64,000 nt of DNA from Picochlorum sp. SENEW3 (taxonomy: Eukaryota), in NCBI GenBank assembly GCA_034226945.1, contig CP120456.1, forward strand, positions 868,001 to 932,000, read 5' to 3'. This document shows, one piece after another, positions 32,157-40,301 of this stretch. Under the pieces are notes generated by a model that saw only the letters and a list, made by a program, of their open reading frames with translations, was not told the origin of the DNA and made no database searches. Numbering within the stretch: the stretch's first letter is position 1; every line of letters begins with the position of its first letter. Both the position numbers and the translations under genes were made by a program.

Positions 32157-33680
32157 ATGATGAGATGTTTCAGAATTCCTGTTTGGGTGGTTGTATTACT
32201 CGTGTCGACAATTCTGACGCTGCAAGCCCAAGGTTCCAGCAGCAAAGATGCTCACAATCTTCTTCTAGTTACAGTAGAGGATGATCATCCGGCGTTGAAT
32301 CGGGTATTTGGTGCTCTGGGTTTGAAGATAGCAAGGTCGTTCTCTCCTCGATATGCACGGGTGGCGTGTTATAGTCAACCAGGGCATGTTGTGGAGTCTC
32401 GAGTGTATCTTGGTTCGTCAGAAGAGCAGGTGCTGGATAGATTTGACCGTGGTTCGTACGAATGGTGTGGAATGGGATATATGATGAATAAAACGATGCG
32501 TCATAGTAGGAGAACGGCTCGTCGAGGAAGCACGGATGATGAAGGAAGCAGCATGGCATTATTCTGTGAGGCTACTCTTCCTGTTGTGTGCAGTCAGTGT
32601 GTTGTAGGAGTGGATGTGTTGAATGGTCGTCGAAGCCTTCTGGATGGGTATGGGTTAAAGCGGATGAAATTATTGGATAGAAATCAGGAAGGTGGGGACC
32701 AATGGCAGATTCGTGTTCAACGCCATGGAGGTGATGATGGTTCATCGTTCCAGGAAGAGTATCGCAACACGTGTATTGTGGAGGATGTGAAGCGGTTTTC
32801 TATATATAGATTAGGAATATGGGTTTTTGGTGCAGGTATTGTGTCATTTGCACCCATACTGAGCACATCGACGTCTTTCAGGCTCACTGGAGGATCCCTG
32901 GCATTTGTCATATTGTCTGGTGTATTTCTCTTGTACATTGTGTGGAAGAATGTTCCTCAGAAAAAGGCCATCCTGTCATCATTCGTGCTTTTTGGTAGTG
33001 CTTTGATTGGATGTATCAAGTTCTTTGGGATGAATATATCGTCGATATTGAGTAACCCCCTGTACTCTTTCCTTCTCGCGGCATACTTGGTTGCTAGTGG
33101 TCTCGTGGGTGCAGCAATCACATATTATTTCAATGACGAGTCGAATGAGAAGTTGAGTACGCTGTTGAAGGTAGCATTGCAAATGTTTGGGGTGTTTATC
33201 ATGTATATGAGCACGACTTCTCCTGAGGCTGCTGTGCTGTTGATTTGCTTGTGGATGGTGTACCAGAGTGGTGTGATGCCAAGGATTTGGAAGCATCGGA
33301 TAGGCAGGGGGCTGACACTGCGTGCTTCTCAGGATGTCGTCGATACTCCTGCTGAAGAAAATGGAGAATCTCCTCTTCACCCGTCAGGTATTGCCGCGAG
33401 GACTCCAGAGCCGTGGGATGGAAAATCCCCTGGCCGTTCAGAGACACCAGGTACTCCTACAGTTTTCCGTGTGTCCACAGTCACTCTTCCCCCAACGCCT
33501 GAGGATTTCACAGATACACAAAATTTGCACGAGTTAGTACAGCGAGGTAAAATTCTGAATGTGGAGACGGATAGGGCAATAGCAATCGGAAAGGGAACAT
33601 ATAATACATTGTTCATGAAAGGATATGAGGTTGATTTTGAAAAGGGAACCATTACCCCTCCAGATAAAAAGACAAGATAG
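32157..33680 (+). CDS. Nuclear envelope integral membrane protein (NEMP/TMEM194/DUF2215-like)
   Basis: Signal peptide, several TM helices including FAPILSTSTSFRLTGG...VWKNVPQKK, and an S/T-P-rich tail. Confidence 0.7.
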   Translation: MMRCFRIPVWVVVLLVSTILTLQAQGSSSKDAHNLLLVTVEDDHPALNRVFGALGLKIARSFSPRYARVACYSQPGHVVESRVYLGSSEEQVLDRFDRGSYEWCGMGYMMNKTMRHSRRTARRGSTDDEGSSMALFCEATLPVVCSQCVVGVDVLNGRRSLLDGYGLKRMKLLDRNQEGGDQWQIRVQRHGGDDGSSFQEEYRNTCIVEDVKRFSIYRLGIWVFGAGIVSFAPILSTSTSFRLTGGSLAFVILSGVFLLYIVWKNVPQKKAILSSFVLFGSALIGCIKFFGMNISSILSNPLYSFLLAAYLVASGLVGAAITYYFNDESNEKLSTLLKVALQMFGVFIMYMSTTSPEAAVLLICLWMVYQSGVMPRIWKHRIGRGLTLRASQDVVDTPAEENGESPLHPSGIAARTPEPWDGKSPGRSETPGTPTVFRVSTVTLPPTPEDFTDTQNLHELVQRGKILNVETDRAIAIGKGTYNTLFMKGYEVDFEKGTITPPDKKTR

Positions 33681-33743
33681 AAAGATTACATGAATACTGA
33701 TGAAATATACATTTGTTAGTTTTATTCTACTGGCAATAAAATG

Positions 33744-36700
33744 TCAATCAATAAGAATCTCTGTTGATTTTACTCTCTTGAGTTGGGAGCGGTGTGAGGC
33801 ATTCAAACGGGTCACTTTCTTCTCTAATGCATGCGCTTCAGAAAATTGCTTCTTCATCTTAAGAGTGTTTGCTAGCTCTTGAAGGGATGCTACGTGCTTG
33901 CTATCAATGGCAATAGCTTTCCGCAACAGCCTTTCAGACTCATCCAGATCTCCAAGCAATCTTTCAAGTCTACCCAGTGATGAAAGTGCCCTTCTACTCT
34001 TGGGTTTCAACTCCAATACCTTTCGATACAAACGTCTGGCGTCACTATTAAGTCCATTTTCTTCTTCTAGCTTTGCCCAACCATGCAATGCAGCCCTGCA
34101 CGTTGGATGGGCATCAATGCACTGCTTGAACAGATCCCTGGCTTTGTTGATAAACCCGGCATTTGATTCTGCAACTGCCCATGCTTGAAGAATGTACTGG
34201 TTTGACTCCTCCAGCGAACAGGCAGCACGAAAGAGTTTCCTAGCATACTCCAGGTTATTCAAAGAAGCCTCCATCTTGCCCCAAGCTTGCAATGCTGGCA
34301 AATAACTCTTGTCAGCCCTGACTGCAGCTTTGAACAGTATTCGAGCCTCTTGATATGCGCCTGTCTCTGCCTTCACCTTTCCAGCAAGTGTCAGTATGTA
34401 TGGATTGCTCTGATCTACCTCCAACGCTTCAGAGCACAGTCTTGCAGCGACAACCAGATCATTTATTTTCCATTCCCGGGTTGCCCAAGAGCACAAGAGC
34501 TTTCCCAGGCGCTTATTGCTCTCTTTCACATCAGAGAGCTTCTTCAAAGATCGCACACCCTTCTGGAATAAAATTCTCGCTGGACCATCGTTGCGCATAT
34601 CAAATTCAAGCAGTGCCCAAGATGTAAACACCCGAGCTAGTGATCTCCTTCTCTCATCAGGGTCCTCAACCAGCTCAAATTGCTCTATAGCAGCTCTTAA
34701 AAACACTCTCACTGTCGCAGCATTGCTGTACTGGATCTTTCGACGAGCTCTCTGGCGCTCAATACCAGCAAGCTGAGCCCAGATTGATCCATCGTCTGGA
34801 TTTCGCATTGCCTCGCCAAGAAGCAACATGTATCCAGCTTGATACTCGCCTTGTTGGACAAGGTTCCGGAAGAAAATGCTCACGTCACGACCATGTCTCA
34901 TTTTTGGCGCGAACACCCCTAGTGTAGCAGCTTCTGCTTCCAGAGATTCTGCCAACGAAAGAGCATCCTTTGTGGCAGGACATGCTGTTGGGGGAGAATC
35001 ATTGGCATCGACTTTGAACGCAATACCAGGCTCTGCCAAGCAAATGACATCCCCTGGAAATAAGTGAACCTCTTTGAATGGTTGAATTTTTGACCTGTTG
35101 ACCCAAACTCCATTGGTTGATCCCATATCCATGATGACACACTTTGAAATGCCATTCACCCTATCCCGAATGACTTCAAACCGAGCATGCCTCCCAGAAA
35201 CAGTAGGAATGTCGATGATATAGTCGTTGTCCTTATTATGGACGGCACCAAATATCACTGGACCATGGCGAGGAAGCGTAATCTGATTCTTTGGGACTTT
35301 CTTGCCAGCACAGTTCTCAACAGTTATGGCTGACAGGCCCTCAAGAGACCACGTTGCTTCAATCTTTTCTGTCCCAGCTTTGCCAAATAATCTTCGGAAA
35401 CCATGCATCGCATTATCAAATGATGACGCATAATTCGGTTCAGATGGGGTCGCCCGGACGTTCTCTTCGCGTGTGGATGGGGGATCTGCAGGAACTGCTG
35501 GAGGTGGGCCAATCTCTGGCTGCACTCTTGCGTCAAATGATTCGTGCTCTTGATCAATTGTTATGACCGTTGAACGACCATATCCACTTCCATTCCTCAC
35601 TGTGCTTTGATTTCTCTTCGTACCAGGTTCATCTCCCAAGTCTTCAAAGCTGCTGCCACTGGACAGATGATCCTCACCATCTCTGAACACACGGGTTCTA
35701 TAGCTCCCTCCAGATCTCCCAGATATACTGTCCCTCTCCCAGACATGAAGTGCATTATCCTGTGGTCTATTAGATATAATTGGGCCTTTAGAGTTTTGCT
35801 CAAGGTCAGAAGAGTTCACTTGTGTCAGAGACTGCGCATATGTCTCATCCATTTGGGCAATGACAGAAGAAAGCCCCATTAACTTTTGAAACTCCATGAA
35901 CTCTTCGAGCGAGATCACTCCATCACTATTTGTATCGAATTTTTTCAACAATTCTTCGGCGCCCATGACATTTGTATCTCCCAGCTCTTCCATAACCTCG
36001 TGCAACTCACTCAAAGACACCTCTCCATCACCATTCAGGTCAATTGATCTAAACAACGCTTCTCCAACGTTTGAATACTGTTCTTCATCAGAAGAAGTAG
36101 ATAACCAAGAGGTTATTTGATCCAAGTTCTTCCCCTTAATTTCCTGCAGATTCTGTGCTTGTGCAACAGACAGTCCACCCTTGTATGCACCATGTGCAGC
36201 ATCTCCCTTCTCCGCCATATGGTGCATCTGTTCCGTACGAATTTGCAGCTCTACCATTGTAACTTCATCTTGCACACCATCAGCCATGACAACAGTTCTA
36301 TGCAGGCTGGAGTACCCATTTGGTTTTGGAGATGCAATGTAATCTTTCGATCGCGACTCAATCACAGGCCACATTTCTGCAGCAACTCGTTCTACAATAT
36401 AGCATCCTTCTATAGCAGCATGTTCACCATCTTCAAGATCATCTCGAGGCAAAACAATGGCACGGAGTCCCAACACATCAAACACCTCCTCTCTCTTCCT
36501 TCCACCTTGACTCAAATCACCCAAACGCAACAACTTCTTCAGCGTGCTAATGGCAGACTTTGTCCGTGATTCTACCTGAATACCACCAGCAACCTCGGAA
36601 AACTTGGGGTACGATGCCACTGCAGTCTCGAGATTTTTCCTTGCTGATTCCAATACCGCATCATGTTGAGACACATATGTATTCAACCAATCCAACGTCT

Positions 36701-37679
36701 TTTTATACGAGGAAGGAAACAACAGTTCTAAACTAAGATTCTCTAGCGCCAAACTCTCTCTTTTGATCCCCAAAGCATGCCCTAGTGGAGCATACACTTG
36801 CAACGCTTCCAATGCGAAACAATGATACAATGCCTGCGAAGCCCCAGCACCTCTTCGCTGTATCTCCTCCAACGTCATCAGTCGATTTATGACCTCAATA
36901 CCGGTAGCATTAATATCATAAAACGCCAGACACATGTCTCTAATCGCAGCAGCCGCATCATCATCATATACATCAATCCGCTGTGGCAGCTTGGACACTT
37001 TCACCACATCCTGACTCATCTGAGCCACATTCCTCCCCACTTTGTCACTAATCATCTTGAACGGAAACACATTCGCCGAACCATACACGGTAGAGACAAT
37101 GGCTGCAGCTATAACATCACAGGTAACCAAGGTATCCTTGCCAGAGCATGGCAGCTCTGCCAACCTCACAGCCAACGCGACACCTCGAGACATAAAATGA
37201 GGCGCCGTCTCAGAGCTTCCCAGACATACTCGCATCGCTTGCGCCACAACATTTGGATCTCCTGGCAAACTCTGCAATACAGCTGACAAACTCTCCCACA
37301 GCCCCATCAGATGCAATAACGACGACTGATGTTGCCCTACATCGTGCCCATGCCTAAGAATATCTCTATCAGAATATATATCGATAATCTGCTCATCATC
37401 GCTCGCCGACGAGTCTCTGTACTGCACTCTTCCAACTCTGGGAATATCTCTGCTGCTACTTGGACGCACAGTACGGGACAAATACGGCCCTAATCTCAGA
37501 TGAAAATCACGCACATTACCATATGATGCTATCCGAGTACCCATGTGATTCCTACCATCCCGAACGCCCGCACGTGGGCGTTGCGATATTCTGTGGCAGT
37601 CAGAGCAACTTGGAACCTCCCGTCCCCTCGAACGAGCAGACTCTTTACTCGGAAGACCACAATACCACTGACTCGACAT
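33744..37679 (-). CDS. Plastid Ca2+-activated RelA/SpoT homolog (CRSH-type; synthetase + 2 EF-hands) fused to FHA and HAT/TPR repeats
   Basis: YAPLGHALG, SRTKS, DVLGLR, KDYIASPKPNGYSSLH and ELQIRTEQMH...AAHGAYK. EF loops DLNGDGEVSLSE and DTNSDGVISLEE. FHA VSGRHA..DMGSTNGVWVN. Repeated QAW..E...AR.LF HAT units. Confidence 0.88.
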   Translation of the reverse strand: MSSQWYCGLPSKESARSRGREVPSCSDCHRISQRPRAGVRDGRNHMGTRIASYGNVRDFHLRLGPYLSRTVRPSSSRDIPRVGRVQYRDSSASDDEQIIDIYSDRDILRHGHDVGQHQSSLLHLMGLWESLSAVLQSLPGDPNVVAQAMRVCLGSSETAPHFMSRGVALAVRLAELPCSGKDTLVTCDVIAAAIVSTVYGSANVFPFKMISDKVGRNVAQMSQDVVKVSKLPQRIDVYDDDAAAAIRDMCLAFYDINATGIEVINRLMTLEEIQRRGAGASQALYHCFALEALQVYAPLGHALGIKRESLALENLSLELLFPSSYKKTLDWLNTYVSQHDAVLESARKNLETAVASYPKFSEVAGGIQVESRTKSAISTLKKLLRLGDLSQGGRKREEVFDVLGLRAIVLPRDDLEDGEHAAIEGCYIVERVAAEMWPVIESRSKDYIASPKPNGYSSLHRTVVMADGVQDEVTMVELQIRTEQMHHMAEKGDAAHGAYKGGLSVAQAQNLQEIKGKNLDQITSWLSTSSDEEQYSNVGEALFRSIDLNGDGEVSLSELHEVMEELGDTNVMGAEELLKKFDTNSDGVISLEEFMEFQKLMGLSSVIAQMDETYAQSLTQVNSSDLEQNSKGPIISNRPQDNALHVWERDSISGRSGGSYRTRVFRDGEDHLSSGSSFEDLGDEPGTKRNQSTVRNGSGYGRSTVITIDQEHESFDARVQPEIGPPPAVPADPPSTREENVRATPSEPNYASSFDNAMHGFRRLFGKAGTEKIEATWSLEGLSAITVENCAGKKVPKNQITLPRHGPVIFGAVHNKDNDYIIDIPTVSGRHARFEVIRDRVNGISKCVIMDMGSTNGVWVNRSKIQPFKEVHLFPGDVICLAEPGIAFKVDANDSPPTACPATKDALSLAESLEAEAATLGVFAPKMRHGRDVSIFFRNLVQQGEYQAGYMLLLGEAMRNPDDGSIWAQLAGIERQRARRKIQYSNAATVRVFLRAAIEQFELVEDPDERRRSLARVFTSWALLEFDMRNDGPARILFQKGVRSLKKLSDVKESNKRLGKLLCSWATREWKINDLVVAARLCSEALEVDQSNPYILTLAGKVKAETGAYQEARILFKAAVRADKSYLPALQAWGKMEASLNNLEYARKLFRAACSLEESNQYILQAWAVAESNAGFINKARDLFKQCIDAHPTCRAALHGWAKLEEENGLNSDARRLYRKVLELKPKSRRALSSLGRLERLLGDLDESERLLRKAIAIDSKHVASLQELANTLKMKKQFSEAHALEKKVTRLNASHRSQLKRVKSTEILID

Positions 37680-38037
37680 GTGGGTGTTTTTAAAGACTCT
37701 AGTATGTGTATATGTTTCAACAGGCCTAAGACCCCCAGCAGAAAAAAGCAAACTCAACCACAGCAGTGGTATACCAGACAGTATCACTCAAAAATACAGA
37801 GCATTCTACCCTAGGATGAAATATTTGAATTGTATATGCGTTTACATGGATTTGGATCGGAGAATCGACCAAGAGTCTGCGGCCTCGTCGTGAGGCTGAG
37901 GCCCGGATTCTTCGTTATTTAAACACATTCAAGACGGCCTCAGTCTTCACATGGAATCAGGCTCTCTTTGTCAAAACCTATTCTATTGTACTTTTAGATG
38001 AATAATAAAGCACAGAACCTGGTATAGGACTGATATC

Positions 38038-39359
38038 ATGGGTGTAGAACAGCGCACACGGGATGATCAACAGGAATTGAAGGATGAGGTCGATTTTAAG
38101 ATTGTTTTGGCCCGCCAGGTGGGTAGCTATTTGATTATTTTGTACACATGTGACAGTAGTAGTTGATATGCGAGACAAGCCTGCATTCTATTGGCAGTTG
38201 GATGAAAACTGATCGTGATATTGAGTGTTTGCAGATTTTTGACTATGATTTGCGTCGTCAGGAGTCCACGTTCACAGACGAGGAGGAATCAAAATGTCGT
38301 GCTGATATAGTCGAGAAGCTGAAGGAGCGCGAGATGGGGCCTGTGTATGAGCGTGTGTGTGCTCAGCTTGGTTGGGATGTGGATGATATGGTGCTTTCGA
38401 GTATGAAAGAGGTGAATGAGAAGAAGATTCGGGAGATTGATGATGCTATTACGAATGCCAAAGAGAATGAAGGGGAGATGGAGGTGAGGGATGCAATGGT
38501 GAGCAAGGCTGACTATTATGCTCAGGTGGGAGATCAGAGCAAGGCTGGGGAGGCGTTTGAAGAGGCGGTTGGCAAGACTGCTGGGTCTGGTCCCAAGTTG
38601 GATTTGTCGTTTTCTCTGTTGAGACTTCACTTGTCGTTGAGGGATTGGGTAGCGTATAAAAAGGAGCTGGAAAAGGCGTGGGATTTATGTTCCAAAGGGG
38701 GAGACTGGGAGAGGAAGAATAAGCTCAAGGTGTATGAGGCTCTGTATTTGATGGCAACGAGGCAGTTTGAGGGGGCTGCAGAGTTGTTTTTAAATTCTAT
38801 TGCAACGTTTACAGCGACAGAGCTGATGAGCTATGAATCGTGTGTGTTCTATACCGTAGTGTTAGCTGTTGTGTCTCTGGACAGGCCAGCATTGTTGGCC
38901 AAGGTTGTGGAGAATCCTGAAATCCTGGCAGCCATTGATGCTGTTCCGCATTTGAGAGAGCTACTCATGTCGCTCTATCAATGTCAATATGCACTCTTCT
39001 TCAAATCATTGGTGGAAATATCAGATGTCATTAAAACCGATATGTTGCTGCATCCTCATTATAGATATTACCTCAAAGAGGCCAGGGTTGTTGTGTACTC
39101 GCAATACCTTCAGAGTTACAAATCTGTCAAGATGACGGGTATGGCGTCAGCTTTTGGTGTATCTGTTGATTTCATAGACGATGAGCTATCGAATATGATT
39201 GTCGAAGGACGATTGCCAGCAAAGTTAGACAGGGTGGATGGCGTGATTTACACCACCCGTCCAGATCCAAAGAATGCTGCATACCAGCAGACAATTCGCC
39301 AAGGGGATCACCTCCTGAACAAGCTACAGAAATTATCTAAACTTACAGATGTAGAATGA
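38038..39359 (+). CDS. RPN7: 26S proteasome regulatory subunit RPN7 (2 exons; intron 38119-38234)
   Basis: GGDWERKNKLKVYE, YSQYLQSYKSV..MASAFGVSVDFID and RPDPKNAAYQ. Confidence 0.93.
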
Positions 39360-39365
39360 TGTAAT

Positions 39366-40301
39366 TCAATAAATATCAAAATCGACGCATGCGCCCGACG
39401 GCATGTTGGTACTCTGATGGAGGAATGCCCGTCTCGCTCTGCTACTTCCCTGGTGGTGGGACGTGTCATCCTGATGCATCACCAGCTGCAACCGGACATG
39501 CGGCTGACCCACCCACGTGTCCCCCAGCGCCGCTCTCTTCATATAAAAAGCATCGTCTTCGCTAGAGAGATGACCTGACGGCTGTCCATACTCCCCCCCG
39601 ATGGTGTAATTCGTTACAAGTACTGCCACATGATGCTCTGCAGCAATCCTTTTTAAATGCATGGCCATGCGACTGAGAACATCATGCCCAGCGTCGTAGG
39701 CCACCCCACCAAGCGTGGGTGCTACAAGACTCCCTAAACAATCTATAATAATCATGGATGGCGTCGACGTCTTCAAGGCCTGCTGCATCTCATGCAACAA
39801 ATCATCCATCCGATGCACATTCAACACAGTGACGCAGTCAAGGGCATCTTCAGCCCGCCGGAACGCTGTATTTGACACATTCCCTATTATACTCACCAAT
39901 CTAGAGGCTCTAAAAGAATTACCAGTATCGATATAGATGACGCGTTCCCCTCTACTGGCCGTCACAGCAGCTGCTGTGTGGCACAGTTGAGTCTTGCCAG
40001 TCCCAGCATCCCCAAACACCTCCATCAAATGACCTTCGAGCAACCCACCCTGCAGCATCTCATCAATCTTTGTACACCCAAGGGGAAGACACCTAGAATT
40101 CTCCATGCTACGTATCAAGTCCTTCCCATTCATCCTGAGAGCAGCTCGAGCCTGGACCGAATGCAGTGCCTCCTCCAGGGTCCCCCTCTGAGACTCGTCA
40201 TTCAAAATCCATTCAGGCACATCCTCATCCCCTCGAGCCGTCACTAATAAAGACACTAATTTTCTGTGAGATATATCATGCAACGGTGTATCATCAGGCA
40301 T
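39366..40301 (-). CDS. RAD51D: RAD51 paralog, most like RAD51D
   Basis: Walker A GDAGTGKTQ, YIDTGNSF, IIDCLGSLVAP and ALGDTW...PHVRL. Confidence 0.78.
   Translation of the reverse strand: MPDDTPLHDISHRKLVSLLVTARGDEDVPEWILNDESQRGTLEEALHSVQARAALRMNGKDLIRSMENSRCLPLGCTKIDEMLQGGLLEGHLMEVFGDAGTGKTQLCHTAAAVTASRGERVIYIDTGNSFRASRLVSIIGNVSNTAFRRAEDALDCVTVLNVHRMDDLLHEMQQALKTSTPSMIIIDCLGSLVAPTLGGVAYDAGHDVLSRMAMHLKRIAAEHHVAVLVTNYTIGGEYGQPSGHLSSEDDAFYMKRAALGDTWVGQPHVRLQLVMHQDDTSHHQGSSRARRAFLHQSTNMPSGACVDFDIY

Follow-up and report, generated by a model that had tools for sequence, protein, structure and literature searches.

The question raised by this locus is what a large C-terminal tail, made of a forkhead-associated (FHA) domain and an array of HAT/TPR helical repeats, is doing on a Ca2+-type synthetase of (p)ppGpp (guanosine penta- and tetraphosphate). 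The gene that encodes both parts lies on the minus strand, at 33744..37679, of the window, which is the whole 64,000-nucleotide stretch of Picochlorum sp. SENEW3 contig CP120456.1 that was analysed (positions 868,001 to 932,000); all coordinates below are those of the window. It is a nuclear, intron-less gene of Picochlorum (Trebouxiophyceae), and its product is probably a long algal (p)ppGpp synthetase of the RSH4/CRSH type (RSH, RelA/SpoT homologue; CRSH, Ca2+-activated RSH), with a tail that docks to a partner in plastid gene expression. We infer both the function of the tail and its partner; RNA or a ribonucleoprotein would be the most likely partner, because the repeats carry a signature of the Mbb1/HCF107 type and the array is basic.

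The open reading frame (ORF list and translation) is free of stops from 33744 to 37787, and has 1347 codons if counted from a GTG. Its first ATG, at 37679, gives 1311 residues and a stop codon at 33744-33746. Contigs of related strains from two sequencing runs (X1 and X3) each have a 4-nt deletion at 37709/37711, directly upstream of this ATG, and the leader is therefore taken to be non-coding, which counts against the GTG start at 37787. The 1311-residue protein is 95% identical to proteins of Picochlorum sp. BPE23, and two NCBI models of that strain, KAI8106857.1 and KAI8110226.1, fall in the same 90% cluster as its best match and are also of 1311 residues. The original prediction of a fusion within one stop-free ORF was thus borne out, and the domain positions that it gave matched the Pfam coordinates to within a few tens of bases. 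In the feature list that follows, Pfam matches were numbered on the 1311-residue protein and then converted to window coordinates, and the conservation of a region is its median identity to 31 homologues.

33744..37679, minus strand: single-exon coding sequence, 1311 residues plus stop (ORF list, translation, equal length of the BPE23 models, no contig joints)
37305..37679, minus strand: N-terminal region of 125 residues, a possible transit peptide, unconserved and basic (median identity 6%, net charge +6, Ser/Thr 17%)
36690..37304, minus strand: pseudo-hydrolase (degenerate HD) domain, residues 126-330, from the HD_4 match and an alignment with Thermus thermophilus Rel (median identity 36%)
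36765-37121, minus strand: Pfam HD_4, residues 187-305, partial match, E 5.7e-10
36120..36689, minus strand: (p)ppGpp synthetase domain, residues 331-520, from the RelA_SpoT match and motifs (median identity 49%)
36177-36569, minus strand: Pfam RelA_SpoT, residues 371-501, E 2e-23
35880..36074, minus strand: two canonical EF-hands, residues 536-600, from Pfam, loops and PDB matches (median identity 48%)
35886-36059, minus strand: Pfam EF-hand pair (EF-hand_5, EF-hand_7, EF-hand_1), residues 541-598, E 1e-11 to 4e-13
35355..35879, minus strand: disordered, poorly conserved linker, residues 601-775, from low identity and low predicted confidence (median identity 15%)
34995..35354, minus strand: non-canonical FHA domain, residues 776-895, with Gly-Ala replacing Gly-Arg, from Pfam and fold matches (median identity 48%)
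35037-35234, minus strand: Pfam FHA, residues 816-881, E 1e-12
34893..34994, minus strand: bridge helix and conserved 'FAP' segment, residues 896-929, from the AlphaFold2 model
33759..34892, minus strand: ten helical-hairpin HAT/TPR repeats and a long capping helix, residues 930-1307, from the AlphaFold2 model and a repeat table (median identity 45%)
residues 1134-1300, minus strand: Pfam TPR, several families, E 1e-9 to 7e-13
repeat array, minus strand: Pfam HAT_Syf1_CNRKL1_C, 27.5 bits (cutoff 27)

In the mechanism proposed here, the N-terminal half would be a Rel-like unit that has lost its hydrolase, is competent as a synthetase and carries two EF-hands and, by homology with land-plant CRSH, it would make ppGpp in the plastid upon a rise in stromal Ca2+. 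Between this catalytic half and a rigid module, a disordered linker of ~140-175 residues would act as a tether; within the module, a non-canonical FHA domain is predicted to pack onto ten HAT/TPR hairpins. The FHA-repeat module may then serve as a docking platform, taking the place of the TGS-ACT tail with which bacterial long RSHs bind the ribosome, and would either place the synthetase at a plastid gene-expression partner or have the synthetase gated by that partner.

The catalytic half has the order of domains of a long RSH, with an HD-type domain followed by a RelA_SpoT domain, as seen both in the Pfam matches and in the alignment to the closest solved structure, the N-terminal domain region of T. 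thermophilus Rel (6s2t; E 3.6e-26 over ~300 residues). In that alignment the 'LLHD' of T. thermophilus Rel is replaced by 'IVST', and 'DRLHN' by 'NRLMT', so that the hydrolase is considered dead and the HD region was rightly described beforehand as degenerate. It is degenerate throughout the family, as expected of RSH4/CRSH proteins with their non-functional hydrolase, and is nevertheless predicted to be helical, with pLDDT (predicted local distance difference test) means of ~71-92 over blocks of 10 residues in the AlphaFold2 model. The synthetase has the following motifs, with a reservation over Ser371 that is discussed below: RTKS..STLKKLL, D..GLR, RSKDYI..PK.NGY.SLH (of the RxKD type), and ELQIRT..MH..AE.G.AAH.AYKGGL. 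Ten catalytic-domain positions (R372, K374, D401, R406, R443, K445, D446, E477, Q479 and R481) were invariant in the 32 aligned sequences.

Both EF-hand loops are of 12 residues and canonical, as had been claimed, reading DLNGDGEVSLSE and DTNSDGVISLEE, and their matches in the PDB include calmodulin and polcalcin (E 1e-8 to 1e-10). Neither a TGS nor an ACT family was present among the Pfam matches listed (25 of 27 families), and within those families the protein has the C-terminal pair of EF-hands without TGS or ACT that is typical of RSH4/CRSH. Activation by Ca2+ is suggested by analogy with land-plant CRSH. The second loop (residues 575-586), canonical in Picochlorum, is degenerate in Micractinium and Chlorella vulgaris (P0030, P0031), and Ca2+ control may therefore differ within the family.

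The tail begins with a domain that is an FHA by fold. In structural alignments (VIA-align), it matched the FHA domains of Mek1 (Z 16.2, root-mean-square deviation (rmsd) 2.0, 102 residues), Bdellovibrio DgcB (Z 15.8, rmsd 1.9, 101 residues), and EmbR (Z 15.3), and in the model the domain is made up entirely of strands, in keeping with an eleven-strand beta-sandwich, with pLDDT around 90. The canonical phosphothreonine-binding set of FHA domains consists of Gly-Arg, Ser-x-x-His and Asn-Gly, the Arg contacting the phosphate. Most of this signature is retained by the family (Ser828 in 38/40 rows, His831 in 40/41, and Asn856 in 41/44), and the exception, the Arg, is taken up below. In Trebouxia spp. 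(P0042, P0043) the FHA signature has decayed, with Ser replaced by Pro and STNG by PYGT, and in Mesostigma (P0137/P0249) an FHA was undetectable; the repeat array was retained in all of these, and for this reason, of the two parts of the tail, the repeats seem to be the more persistent.

The full W..E / AR..(F/Y/C) signature is present in five of the ten repeats (3, 4, 6, 7 and 8), while repeat 2 has the W..E half only, and residues W967, W1021, E1025, R1147 and F1150 are invariant. This is the HAT pattern, in which helix A has a W or Y and helix B has A-R..(F/Y), and it is accompanied by the Pfam HAT match and, in a sequence search of solved structures, by matches of the middle repeats to the HAT proteins Clf1/CRNKL1 (E 2e-8 to 4e-7). 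The last three repeats matched consensus TPR and OGT in the same search. The label 'HAT' is therefore fair as far as the repeat sequences go. The net charge of the array is +15.

An exhaustive HMMER search with the array against 1.84 billion representatives gave 16,958 matches at E <= 0.001, and among the first outsiders beyond the family are proteins that bear the annotation PsbB mRNA maturation factor Mbb1 (Porphyridium, E 7.5e-50; Ceratopteris, E 7e-29). Bacterial-type proteins with an nSTAND NTPase and TPRs score alongside these Mbb1 proteins; those with 'Novel STAND NTPase 5' and a long TPR/HAT array (P0090, P0096, P0097, P0099, P0101) rank among the best outsiders. Alignment to two Mbb1 proteins by BLASTP gave ~27% identity in several shifting registers and, given also that the array belongs to a protein with FHA and RSH domains, orthology with Mbb1/HCF107 is not supported. 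The array is better described, from its sequence, as a relative of the Mbb1/HCF107 repeat type.

AlphaFold2, run on residues 771-1311 with an alignment of 44 sequences, returned a confident model (pLDDT 94.6; predicted template modelling score (pTM) 0.89) comprising the FHA beta-sandwich, the bridge helix, ten hairpins and a long capping helix. The bridge helix lies at 901-919 with high pLDDT, and the wider block around it (896-960) has a median identity of 43%. In this model the FHA domain and the repeats form a single rigid unit. The linker before it, described beforehand as being of low complexity, is disordered, and its residues 622-759 have a pLDDT below 50; that value, and a pTM of 0.52 for a model of 1200 residues (112-1311), suggest two folded halves joined by a flexible tether. 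With median identities of 48% for the FHA and 45% for the repeats, against 49% for the synthetase, the tail is constrained as strongly as the enzyme and, being conserved to the same degree, it must matter.

A number of observations weigh against the proposed mechanism, against the wider reading given in the original prediction, or against both. The first concerns the synthetase, which was originally called intact: its RSKDYI and its invariant motifs are indeed present, but Ser371, the residue before the invariant Arg372, occupies the position of a Gly in T. thermophilus Rel. The second is that the FHA, whose fold and Pfam match uphold the original claim, has Gly-Ala (Ala812) in place of the Gly-Arg pair and so lacks the canonical phosphothreonine-binding set; the Arg is found in 0/41 family rows (A 35, G 5, S 1). 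Third, the HAT/TPR claim stands as regards the W..E/AR..F signature and the presence of Mbb1 among the outsiders, but the fold is that of a generic TPR superhelix. The best VIA-align matches were OGT (Z 23.6) and TTC7B (Z 23.0, rmsd 3.3, 345 residues), Foldseek gave the TPRs of OGT at E 2e-12, as expected of a right-handed TPR solenoid, and the fold matches were mostly generic protein-binding superhelices (OGT, TTC7B, APC/C, Tom70), with no HAT RNA-binder ranked above them in the fold search. RNA binding is, for this reason, only an analogy. In addition, two Auxenochlorella gene models of 673 and 683 residues, named 'CGL92', consist of FHA and TPR alone; among contigs of four sequencing runs, of which X10 alone is surely RNA, no RNA contig bridges the entire gene; and the plastid location of the protein is one that we infer from family membership and the composition of the N-terminal region. 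The original prediction had envisaged a signalling hub, an idea that the Arg-less FHA, the generic TPR fold matches and Ser371 all weaken, and taken as a whole that earlier interpretation was partly supported.

A different view of the tail is that of a phosphorylation-dependent protein adaptor, in which the FHA would read phosphothreonine on a plastid protein, the TPR groove would hold the same or a second protein, and kinase signalling would gate ppGpp synthesis. The confirmed FHA fold speaks for this (the matches include the Mek1 FHA with a phosphothreonine peptide, and the FHA of DgcB), as do the retained Ser828, His831 and Asn856, and the structural matches of the repeats, the best of which are protein-binding TPRs. 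However, with the Arg of the Gly-Arg pair absent from all 41 rows, classical reading of phosphothreonine by this FHA is doubtful, and a phmmer alignment with the FHA of Arabidopsis DDL pairs 'LFGRE' with 'ifGA', setting Ala on the Arg. An adaptor of this kind is accordingly regarded as unlikely, and docking to a plastid gene-expression partner is preferred.

Alternatively, the tail might act within the molecule, docking on the synthetase or EF-hands and keeping the enzyme inactive until its release by Ca2+ or a ligand, much like the C-terminal region of bacterial Rel. C-terminal control of the catalytic half is described as the rule in long RSHs in the review of Boniecka (2017), and a repurposing of such control in algal RSH4 has been suggested in that of Mehrez (2022). 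The 1200-residue model shows no confident contact between the two halves, a result which, at the pTM and linker pLDDT given above, is not evidence of absence, and a complex prediction of residues 130-610 with 795-1305 scored 0.00 and was uninformative either way. Autoinhibition by the tail seems quite unlikely.

A third possibility is that the synthetase itself has died with the change of Gly to Ser, leaving a scaffold or pseudo-enzyme. The Gly in question (G240 of RelSeq, G45 of SAS1) adjoins an ATP-binding Arg, and its loss is, according to Avilan et al. (2019), a widespread ground for calling a synthetase dead, so that Ser371 would commonly be taken to mark lost activity. Set against this, the remaining catalytic motifs are invariant in 32 sequences, and the Gly is present in only 16/34 family members (S 8, A 4, other 6), yet the synthetase is the best conserved domain. 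Two diatom enzymes, PtRSH4a with Ala and PtRSH4b with Ser at this position, are reported to be active synthetases (Avilan et al. 2019). A pseudo-enzyme is thus improbable, and the synthetase is probably active despite Ser371.

It is scarcely credible that the long ORF gives rise to two products, for instance through a start or a promoter lying inside the linker: the split annotation of Picochlorum renovo and the Auxenochlorella models favour this, but the frame through the linker (175 residues, 15% identity) is open both here and in many diverged relatives with a full-length ORF, the contigs of four runs have neither a joint nor a shared contig end in the linker, and proteins of 817-919 residues with EF-hands, FHA and TPR are ORF fragments. 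The linker frame is in fact open in all full-length relatives. In P. renovo the orthologue is cut into NNA_008622 (141 residues, P0060) and NNA_008624 (358 residues, P0242), which is probably an artefact of annotation or assembly. The two Auxenochlorella haplotype models differ at their N-termini, and given their FHA+TPR-only content the tail may also work alone. A paper using the term 'CGL92' was not found, and the name is an annotation name only; a word-index search with the Auxenochlorella protein matched only Auxenochlorella itself and two unrelated bacterial TPR proteins. Separate FHA-TPR genes were also sought among six matches of 817-919 residues that have EF-hands, FHA and TPR only. 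These were rejected as they start inside the synthetase or before the EF-hands, and since one of them, P0018, starts within the synthetase motif MH..AE.G.AAH.AYKGGL, the six are regarded as parts of longer ORFs, truncated at an intron or by the gene caller.

The contig comparison covered four sequencing runs, of which the one certain RNA run, X10, is an oligo-dT metatranscriptome that may contain DNA. No joint was seen across the gene in contigs of any of the four. The X10 contigs span 33665 to 36396 piecewise, on both sides of the linker, and cover 19/30 bins; cover was lacking from 36480-37900 and in three 3'-side bins, which proves nothing with oligo-dT contigs.

The complete layout is conserved among green algae. 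RelA_SpoT, FHA and TPR were found together in a single protein in 32/55 homologues, according to precomputed Pfam lists, and the architecture, when checked across chlorophytes, extended from Trebouxiophyceae (Nannochloris, Chlorella vulgaris, where it is named 'CRSH1', Micractinium, Parachlorella, Coccomyxa and Myrmecia) to Pedinophyceae sp. YPF-701 and Tetraselmis striata. Mesostigma viride has HD_4, synthetase, EF-hand and TPR/HAT domains without the FHA. Relatives of the FHA-repeat tail in bacteria or cyanobacteria were sought by an alignment scan of genome contigs, in which 26 stretches fitted the pattern and 0 were confirmed by tblastn. A cyanobacterial FHA+TPR cluster in the ESM Atlas scored 0.89, under the 0.9 mark, and is a lead only.

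The possibility that this architecture was new did not hold, as it has already been catalogued in surveys of algal RSHs. A forkhead domain was found in the RSH4 of Chlorella variabilis by Avilan et al. (2019), who list that protein (XP_005851775.1) in Table S2 as 'FHA, TPR' and the RSH4 proteins of Klebsormidium nitens and Ostreococcus tauri as 'TPR', and who cite Ito et al. (2017) for a TPR at the C-terminus of RSH4 in some green algae. The assignment of the Picochlorum protein to RSH4 rests on the inclusion of its Chlorella relative in that class (Avilan et al. 2019), and on source names such as 'CRSH1'. Novel domains are said to be frequent in algal RSH4, and Ca2+ activation and a dark-induced role are described for CRSH, in the review of Mehrez (2022). 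A literature search for functional study of the FHA-repeat tail found only Avilan et al. (2019) and its preprint; the missing FHA Arg, the HAT-type signature of the repeats and the rigid FHA-repeat unit are not mentioned in the available portions of that paper.

A bolder proposal, which we put forward as doubtful, is that the FHA-HAT tail senses RNA or a ribonucleoprotein and that, early in the green lineage, it took the place of the tail with which bacterial RSHs sense the ribosome. It would then extend from Mesostigma to the core chlorophytes but have disappeared from land plants, with the Arg-less FHA serving as a phospho-independent clamp on the repeats. If true, ppGpp synthesis in algal plastids would integrate the state of specific plastid mRNAs or of translation with stromal Ca2+. 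Whatever the partner, ppGpp acts as a brake on photosynthesis and on gene expression in the chloroplast, and the Ca2+-type synthetase of many green algae bears a large tail that the plant models used for CRSH lack. The Arg-less FHA, the Mbb1-type repeats and the rigid module on a flexible tether turn an architecture already in print from a catalogue entry into a set of testable hypotheses. Picochlorum species, which include fast-growing production strains, are transformable, and this would open the role of the tail to genetic test.

The region around the gene has a GC content of ~45-47% and densely packed ORFs, and the flanking genes are unrelated housekeeping genes (a NEMP-family protein, the proteasome subunit RPN7, and a Rad51 paralogue). 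At 33680-33744 the synthetase gene converges tail to tail with the NEMP-family ORF, with 63 bp separating their stop codons, and the RPN7 and Rad51-paralogue ORFs converge likewise at 39359-39366, only 6 bp apart. With almost no spacer between them, the 3' untranslated regions of such convergent neighbours must overlap. Two plus-strand ORFs of 150-162 codons lie antisense within the gene, at 36117-36569 and 36798-37286, and nothing suggests that they are genes.

Among known systems, the nearest is the RSH4 of C. variabilis (XP_005851775.1), which belongs to the same family and has a degenerate HD domain and a synthetase followed by FHA and TPR; its sequence, as printed in the survey's supplement, agrees almost residue for residue with the Chlorella/Micractinium rows of our alignment, although it comes from a different genus and its survey entry, in the portion available, consists of domain names only. 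Land-plant CRSH resembles the Picochlorum protein in its dead hydrolase, its synthetase domain with largely conserved motifs, its two EF-hands and its lack of TGS and ACT. It ends after the EF-hands (Mehrez 2022), whereas the Picochlorum protein continues for ~710 residues more and, unlike land-plant CRSH, carries Ser in place of the classic Gly.

Mbb1 and HCF107, plastid HAT-repeat proteins that stabilise the 5' ends of mRNAs, share with the array their 34-residue hairpins and the pattern (L)QAWA.(L/M)E ... AR.LF, and MBB1 is credited with ten repeats in Table 2 of a review of Chlamydomonas helical-repeat proteins, but they are stand-alone proteins of ~650 residues with neither FHA nor catalytic domain. 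Bdellovibrio DgcB (6hbz/6hc0), a diguanylate cyclase with FHA and GGDEF domains, likewise combines a second-messenger synthase with an FHA; its catalytic domain is unrelated and its FHA is N-terminal, and so it offers an analogy only. Finally, the bacterial long RSHs (Rel, RelA and SpoT) have the same catalytic half of a hydrolase-like and a synthetase domain as the Picochlorum protein, in which the hydrolase residues have been lost and the ribosome-sensing TGS-ACT tail has given way to EF-hands, followed by a linker and the FHA-HAT/TPR module.

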